Assembly: GCA_951406725.2 (NCBI GenBank)
Contig: OX597816.1
Location: forward strand, 84,134,001-84,198,000
DNA from: Octopus vulgaris
Lineage: Eukaryota
DNA: 64,000 bases
Direction of reading: 5' to 3'
Part shown: positions 54,190 to 54,545 of the stretch, piece by piece
How positions within the stretch are numbered: position 1 is the stretch's first letter
Layout of the letters: every line of letters starts with the position of its first letter
The notes under the pieces: model-generated
Seen by the model: only the letters and a program-made list of their open reading frames with translations
Told to the model about the DNA's origin: nothing
The model's database searches: none
Position numbers and translations under genes: made by a program

Positions 54190-54545
54190 AACAATAGCAT
54201 CGTCCTCTATTGGACCATCGCATTTAGTTGTTACTACTGTTTAGTTCTCGCTCAGAGATTGCTTCTCCTTTTTCAAGATCAGCTTATTAGTATTTTGCGT
54301 TTGGAATGAGTTCTCATCGCTAGCTTGTAATTATCACACACTGATGACGAGTTACTACTAAGAAACCCGGGTCTATGTGTATCACGTATGGCTAGATATG
54401 GGAACAATGATTTCCCTTCGCAAATACTAATCAGACACAGACAATGTGTCATCAGCCAGCTTGAGGAGATGCCCTCCTGGGGCTATAAATAGTAGCATCA
54501 TCCTCTGTGGACACGCTACCTTTAGTTGGCAAATAAGCTTCACAA
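54190..54545 (+). mobile_element. Retrozyme-like non-coding unit (298-nt period) with HHR
   Basis: Terminal direct repeat at 54195 and 54493; cacaca CUGAUGA ... GAAA cccgg GUC tatgtg at 54335-54380; long-range pairing; (TA)n flanks. Confidence 0.75.

Follow-up and report, generated by a model that had tools for sequence, protein, structure and literature searches.

The element described here is most like the non-LTR retrozymes of animals (PMC7229834), such as the 350-390-bp units of Mytilus galloprovincialis and Rtz_331 and Rtz_353 of the axolotl. Both are built of tandem, non-coding units within the range of 150-450 bp and with a GC content below 50%, and they are alike in having one type I hammerhead per unit, a self-paired predicted circle and coexisting Penelope-like elements (PLEs). 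Cleavage by dimeric hammerheads, as reported for newt and axolotl (PMC6155905; PMC7229834), together with ligation by RtcB yields the retrozyme circles (PMC7229834). Circles and cleavage have been demonstrated for those retrozymes, while the octopus family is known from genomic sequence and is likened to them by its features. Mobilisation of the circle by PLEs is put forward as a hypothesis in the accessible text of that report, which contains no analysis of insertion ends, whereas ends, arm pairing and array uniformity are measured here. Retrozymes of Xenopus have been described as non-autonomous PLE derivatives, with the same monomers, dimers, multimers and PLE link as in our family (Li, Clavereau and Pollet 2026, bioRxiv 10.64898/2026.07.22.740005). 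In the available part of that preprint the link lies in co-occurrence and homology to the pseudo-LTR (pLTR), and the mechanism is called unresolved; here the link comes from insertion anatomy and one chimera. The retrozyme life cycle, with a circle as template and a PLE reverse transcriptase (RT) as driver, is thus still a proposal in the text available from both sources (PMC7229834; bioRxiv 10.64898/2026.07.22.740005), and by title or abstract start the open-access PMC and bioRxiv literature reported no end or array analysis for retrozymes. As for PLEs themselves, their described hallmarks are a tail at a single end, inverted 5' copies and microsatellite targets (PMC8557442). In vitro the PLE protein cuts and extends both strands, with two internal RT start sites producing the tail, and for the one PLE studied in this way the hammerhead was dispensable (PMC11167929).

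Here, we analysed a 64,000-nucleotide stretch of DNA (the window) of Octopus vulgaris, which belongs to a 2.8-Gb genome in which the retrozyme family is dispersed. Positions on the retrozyme circle are numbered from the first base past GUC. The features of the insertion and its surroundings are as follows (window coordinates):

53926..54186, no strand: (TA)n-rich left flank, inferred target
54187..54546, + strand: retrozyme insertion (old subfamily A), covering a 357-nt unit about 1.17 times
54187..54230, + strand: 5' redundant part, a second reading of circle positions 115-158, with a TATAA-like junction to the (TA)n flank
54228..54288, + strand: zone of copy-specific deletions, which shrinks the period to 298 nt
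54287..54430, + strand: stem I lengthened by three additional helices, hammerhead at the tip, from folds and paired changes between subfamilies
54335..54379, + strand: type I hammerhead, cleavage predicted after C54373
54335-40/54374-79, + strand: hammerhead stem I
54341-54347, + strand: hammerhead core CUGAUGA
54348-52/54357-61, + strand: hammerhead stem II, 3 of 5 pairs kept
54362-54365, + strand: GAAA
54365-54372, + strand: palindromic stem III, ACCCGGGT
54371-54373, + strand: GUC cleavage-site triplet
54529..54546, + strand: 3' end of the insertion, coinciding with the first of the two fixed ends of the family (position 176; inferred RT start site 1)
54547..54630, no strand: degenerate TA/TG-rich right flank

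The insertion is 360 bases long and follows the circle from position 115 to 357 and then from 1 to 176, passing the hammerhead once. As the original prediction had it, there is no ORF (the longest ATG ORF has 57 codons) and the flanks are TA-rich on both sides. The terminal repeat on which that prediction was built is real, but loose, with 35 of 48 columns identical between 54184-54230 and 54484-54528. The unit size of 298 nt had to be given up, as the natural tandem copy measures 357 nt. In the window the terminal repeats stand 298 nt apart because 24 nt at 54228/9, 11 nt at 54258/9 and 22 nt net at 54279-88, together 57 nt, were lost from the 5' third. The family loses sequence at about 1.1 deletions per kb (deletions of at least 4 nt). 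Moreover, the 18 nt at the 3' end (54529-54546) correspond to a part of the 5' pass that the first deletion removed. Their best ungapped match within the 298-mer is 11 of 18, so they are not represented there, which rules out a 298-nt circle as template. When the shortened 5' part was used as query, the 4 candidates gave, besides itself, only three weak matches (E 6e-6) and no close relative. Along with a hairpin, the deletions between 54228 and 54288 eliminate both fixed-end sites from the second turn.

Compared with the commonest letter per column, the window copy has 42 mismatches in 357 aligned bases, and the family mean divergence is 9.2%; on these grounds subfamily A is called old. The copy thus carries about 12% substitutions, which would have arisen during or after insertion. 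Two minority letters (column frequencies 30/92 and 26/96) are shared by both of its passes, which is weakly consistent with one template. Li et al. call copies with two consecutive complete hammerheads active, and the window copy, with one, corresponds to their 'monomer derivative'. Since its single hammerhead has a broken stem II, it is most likely dead, and taken alone it is a fossil of a known class.

All the hammerhead parts named in the original prediction (CUGAUGA, GAAA, the palindrome and GUC) were recovered, as were the nested arms at 54320-24/54391-95, 54310-17/54398-405, 54287-99/54419-30 and 54265-77/54460-68. Stem II is weak, as had also been noted: its base is a C-A mismatch in most subfamily A copies (C in 50 and A in 67, of 68), and the window copy carries a second mismatch besides. 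We considered the C-A mismatch as CpG decay of a C-G pair and dropped this idea, since A is found in 67 of 68 copies while nearby CpG is only partly changed. The core is intact in 44 of 68 old (subfamily A) motifs, the window copy included. Such a mismatch at the base of stem II is described for HHR_Amex2, and a weak palindromic stem III, like the one found here, for HHR_Amex1 (PMC7229834). The palindrome is kept in each of subfamilies A, B and C, which suggests cleavage as a dimer. Rfam searches returned no hammerhead for the window copy and only microsatellite noise for window positions 50000-59000. Subfamily B scored 32.2 bits against Hammerhead_1 (E 2.8e-6), below the gathering score of 34, and neither subfamily C nor another A copy gave a match. 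No other ribozyme was found by Rfam.

The prediction that the fold is more stable than shuffles held for the 298-mer, both as a linear molecule (z -4.06, 0 of 200 shuffles as good) and as a circle (-85.0 kcal/mol, z -4.12, 0 of 60 as good); its reverse complement folds about equally well (z -4.06). The additional rod-likeness stems partly from deletions specific to this copy. When folded as circles, natural units (z -5.2 for B, -4.4 for C and -2.3 for one old A copy) form a single long arm tipped by the hammerhead, together with several smaller hairpins, and the outermost stem is absent from the folds of intact young units. These results bear on the possibility that the element is a 298-nt rod-like, viroid-like circle replicating as RNA. 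Its fold (z -4.1) would suit such an agent, but the 298-mer lacks the last 18 nt of the insertion, the shortened 5' part is without a close relative, and imposing the active ribozyme fold costs 12.2 kcal/mol in the window copy versus 4.4-6.5 in full units. In addition, no hammerhead core with stem II was found on the minus strand of A, B, C or the window copy, so that 'viroid-like' is too strong a word, and we regard an RNA-replicating circle of this size as extremely unlikely. What survives of the predicted 'slightly more than one round' is 1.17 turns of a repeating template. In three of the four predicted circular folds (window copy, B and C), pairing draws the hammerhead core into an extended, inactive arm, which could protect a circle from self-cleavage.

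We also looked for paired changes between subfamilies. Both sides are altered in 15 of 36 pairs across 14 natural sequences, which exceeds 500 of 500 shuffles and all slid controls, although the lineages are few and related and the structure was partly derived from the same alignment; RNAalifold alone gave 12 of 35 pairs changed on both sides. We take this as support for conserved hammerhead stems, and not as a probability. An apparent compensatory pair in the outer TCAAG/CTTGA stem was treated as chance, since the two changes behind it are rare, seen in 3 of 38 and in 1 of 83 copies.

Other genomic copies, on whose existence the original prediction depended, were readily found: with the element as query the best 40 of 1759 candidates gave 64 matches, and a full-length natural copy gave 3413 candidates, fragments and sister subfamilies included. 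Several loci run head to tail, among them L022, in which the period is 357 nt. Two sister subfamilies, B and C, were found via the flanks of retrozyme loci, with periods of 353 nt and 359-360 nt, respectively; similarity among natural units of the three subfamilies is 57-69%. The proposed class, a unit of the non-LTR retrozyme type bearing a type I hammerhead, therefore stands, as the units (353-360 nt) are tandem and non-coding (longest ATG ORFs on tandem units 37-66 codons), with a GC content of 41-50%. From 14 exact motifs, and with 3 of 60 sampled motifs matching, subfamily A can be roughly estimated at about 280 hammerhead-bearing copies. For subfamily B, 476 exact matches to the hammerhead motif were counted, against 0 in the reversed control. 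Its top copies are 97-100% alike, also across chromosomes, and C copies are 94-99% alike. Stem II is better paired in these young sisters than in A, with five pairs in B. The B arrays contain consecutive complete hammerheads, the arrangement that Li et al. call active. The longest arrays reach 6.9 units. Divergent variants at L063, L108 and L183:5218-5395, about 68-73% alike to the references where measured, suggest further subfamilies.

The original prediction had asked whether other copies are circularly permuted. This is so for the 5' ends, which scatter round the circle, but the 3' ends are fixed at two sites, and hence the copies are not freely permuted. In subfamily A (57 loci), 40 of 94 pieces end at positions 162-177 and another 40 at 210-228, in a set that includes the window's own two pieces and a few from other subfamilies. 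The corresponding ends lie at 170-174 and 216-222 in subfamily B and at 179-183 and 222-228 in C, so that in all three subfamilies the fixed 3' ends lie roughly 175 and 220 nt past the cleavage site, approximately 45 nt apart, mostly running into (TA)n. Forty B loci were drawn from the first 100 listed motif matches, which lie on three contigs; of their 63 pieces, 55 end at either site. Pieces longer than one unit account for 34 of 63 in this set and for 33 of 94 in the A set, most loci being best search matches and hence biased towards long, well-kept copies. Where an insertion consists of two head-to-head arms, each site is used by one arm in 50 of 53 classifiable pairs (61 pairs, 8 unclassifiable; binomial p 3e-12), and the same was seen by hand count in 16 of 16 in a further set (19 pairs, 3 unclassifiable), giving 66 of 69 overall.

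The fixed ends point to Penelope-type reverse transcription. As in endonuclease-bearing PLEs (Craig et al. 2021, PMC8557442; Frangieh et al. 2024, PMC11167929), there are two 3' ends separated by a tail, with the tail at a single end; inverted 5'-truncated partners, partial tandems, AT-rich or (TA)n targets and a hammerhead near the end are likewise shared with those elements. The retrozyme differs from PLEs in lacking an ORF, in its unit of about 355 nt and in arrays of up to about 7 turns. Since PLEs, too, have fixed 3' ends, a tail, TA targets and inversions, the window copy might be read as the solo pLTR of an autonomous PLE, the competing reading already named in the original prediction. 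The ends are indeed fixed, but no ORF is attached to them, so they do not make a plain pLTR. Instead of an ORF, it is the preceding unit that lies upstream of the hammerhead. Among the retrozyme loci scanned (57 old loci, L139-L208 and L229-L268, overlapping sets), 7 have PLE protein matches, and in none of the scanned loci does a PLE protein stand in register as an ORF plus pLTR; units follow units. For these loci a solo pLTR is accordingly hardly credible. By its sequence the family fits the definition of an animal non-LTR retrozyme, with a Penelope-passenger-like insertion pattern.

Since PLEs are the suspected driver, those of the window deserve description:

37909-39145, + strand: 5'-truncated copy of a very young PLE family
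17169 to about 19450, + strand: 5'-truncated, broken copy of a second young PLE family, with a hammerhead-like motif at 19317

In the first family the GIY-YIG region has 99-100% protein identity in 150 of 150 scored matches and frames of 753 codons exist elsewhere; the second, 57% identical to it, has frames of 784-785 codons elsewhere. The window pieces themselves gave weak Pfam matches to RVT_1 and GIY-YIG, below the cut-off. At 39008 the first copy contains a hammerhead-like motif whose core is U3/A8 and whose palindrome is ACCGGU. Other ORFs of the window, at 199-1369, 13711-14406 and 30214-31584, we take by eye to resemble Tc1/mariner transposase and C-terminal parts of RTE- and CR1-type LINE proteins. 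The young PLEs carry a CxxxxCxxC motif ahead of the endonuclease, as described for the Neptune and Nematis clades (PMC8557442). Their head-to-head insertions in (TA)n follow the arm pattern of the retrozymes, with a short end on one arm and a long end on the other in 18 of 19 scorable pairs (20 regions). The tail is 43-47 nt in the retrozyme, compared with 44 nt or a few more in PLE family A, 30-37 nt in PLE family B and 30-40 bp in described PLEs (PMC8557442; PMC11167929); it is closer to that of family A than to that of family B. No shared sequence was found between the retrozyme units and the 3' ends of two PLE families.

A direct meeting of both partners is seen at L133:2267-2942 (G000:C17, near 47.713 Mb), where a 5'-truncated family-B PLE stands head to head with a 1.9-unit subfamily B array, and both ends of this chimera lie in (TA)n. 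The retrozyme arm ends near position 270-274, outside both usual sites, and thus the usual driver may be a PLE family other than this one. At L252:1667-2557, the 3' end of a third PLE family meets the 5' end of a subfamily B copy through a small inversion, with no TA in between. Assembled contigs of runs X1, X2, X5 and X6 (RNA by guess) cover a stretch of PLE plus one B unit, with the head-to-tail joint in 4 of 4, but the joint is also genomic, and contigs reveal neither ends nor strand, so they carry no information on circles or expression. Among the sequencing runs, no RNA run is listed as containing the window copy.

The arrays tell more about the template. Substitutions of subfamily B (78 loci) are array-wide in 116 cases, confined to one pass in 208 and present in some passes only in 22, although assembly polishing could inflate such apparent uniformity. 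Seventeen of the array-wide ones are private to one locus, and 9 of these occur on both arms. At the 12,356 template positions copied by both arms of 43 B pairs, 1 unit-specific variant is shared and 86 are unshared; the seven C pairs have 0 shared and 19 unshared. Array-wide variants together with unshared unit-specific ones mean that template diversity passed a one-unit bottleneck, and this favours a monomeric circular template as its simplest putative explanation.

A linear multimeric transcript of a fresh, uniform array could also have been copied by Penelope-type mobilisation, with no circle and an incidental hammerhead. Three loci speak for it: L183, with an identical unit-specific variant on both arms, and L156 and L159, in which the haplotype changes within the array, in the last pass, so that some templates were multimeric or switched. 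However, diversity that is nearly all array-wide, with so few unit-specific variants common to the arms, would still demand a one-unit bottleneck, and an incidental hammerhead does not account for stems kept by paired changes across subfamilies only 57-69% alike. We therefore consider the linear multimer unlikely. The last-pass haplotype switches would equally suit a scheme in which the templates are linear monomers cut by the hammerhead and the RT, on reaching the 5' end of one, continues at the 3' end of another or goes back to that of the same molecule. End-to-end jumps of retroelement RTs usually leave added or lost bases, but the cleavage junction was crossed without a single indel in 209 cases at 78 B loci and in 34 at 14 C loci (0 in 243), which makes such jumping very unlikely. 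Finally, arrays may have grown after insertion by tandem duplication of a SINE-like monomer at the DNA level. Local amplification of PLE ends into tandem repeats has been proposed (bioRxiv 10.64898/2026.07.22.740005), and at L170 adjacent units have variants in common. Against this stand the private variants that recur in the arrays of both head-to-head arms, and the arrays themselves, which are non-integer in length with exact 3' ends and 97-100% alike across chromosomes; DNA-level duplication is in our view highly improbable.

Thus, returning to the circular template, we hold it to be probable that the window insert is a decayed copy of a non-coding hammerhead repeat with a 357-nt period, likely copied by a PLE RT from a predicted RNA circle into a TA microsatellite. 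A tandem retrozyme copy would be transcribed, two hammerheads would cut, probably as a dimer via the palindromic stem III, and a host ligase would close the monomer into a circle. The PLE RT/GIY-YIG protein would then cut (TA)n and start reverse transcription at one or both internal sites, running round the circle until it falls off at a variable point. For the window copy, RT would have started at site 1 and made 1.17 turns, and its deletions and substitutions would have come during or after insertion. The insertion anatomy of the family favours rolling-circle reverse transcription and a one-site-per-strand rule, as far as genomic copies can tell. A more specific scenario is twin priming on one RNA circle, in which a PLE RT dimer would use a single ribozyme-made circle of about 355 nt to prime both strands of the cut TA repeat, one site per strand (about 45 nt apart), and run for up to seven turns before the cDNAs are joined head to head. 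We put it forward as a tentative, though quite possible, account.

What is new here is genomic evidence on an open retrozyme mechanism, together with a young system for studying it. As near-identical arrays with good ribozymes stand beside PLE frames of 750-785 codons, the mechanism is directly testable in this genome. If twin priming is true, the young retrozymes and the open PLE frames would form an active system, and circles would be able to template PLE-type insertion in vivo.
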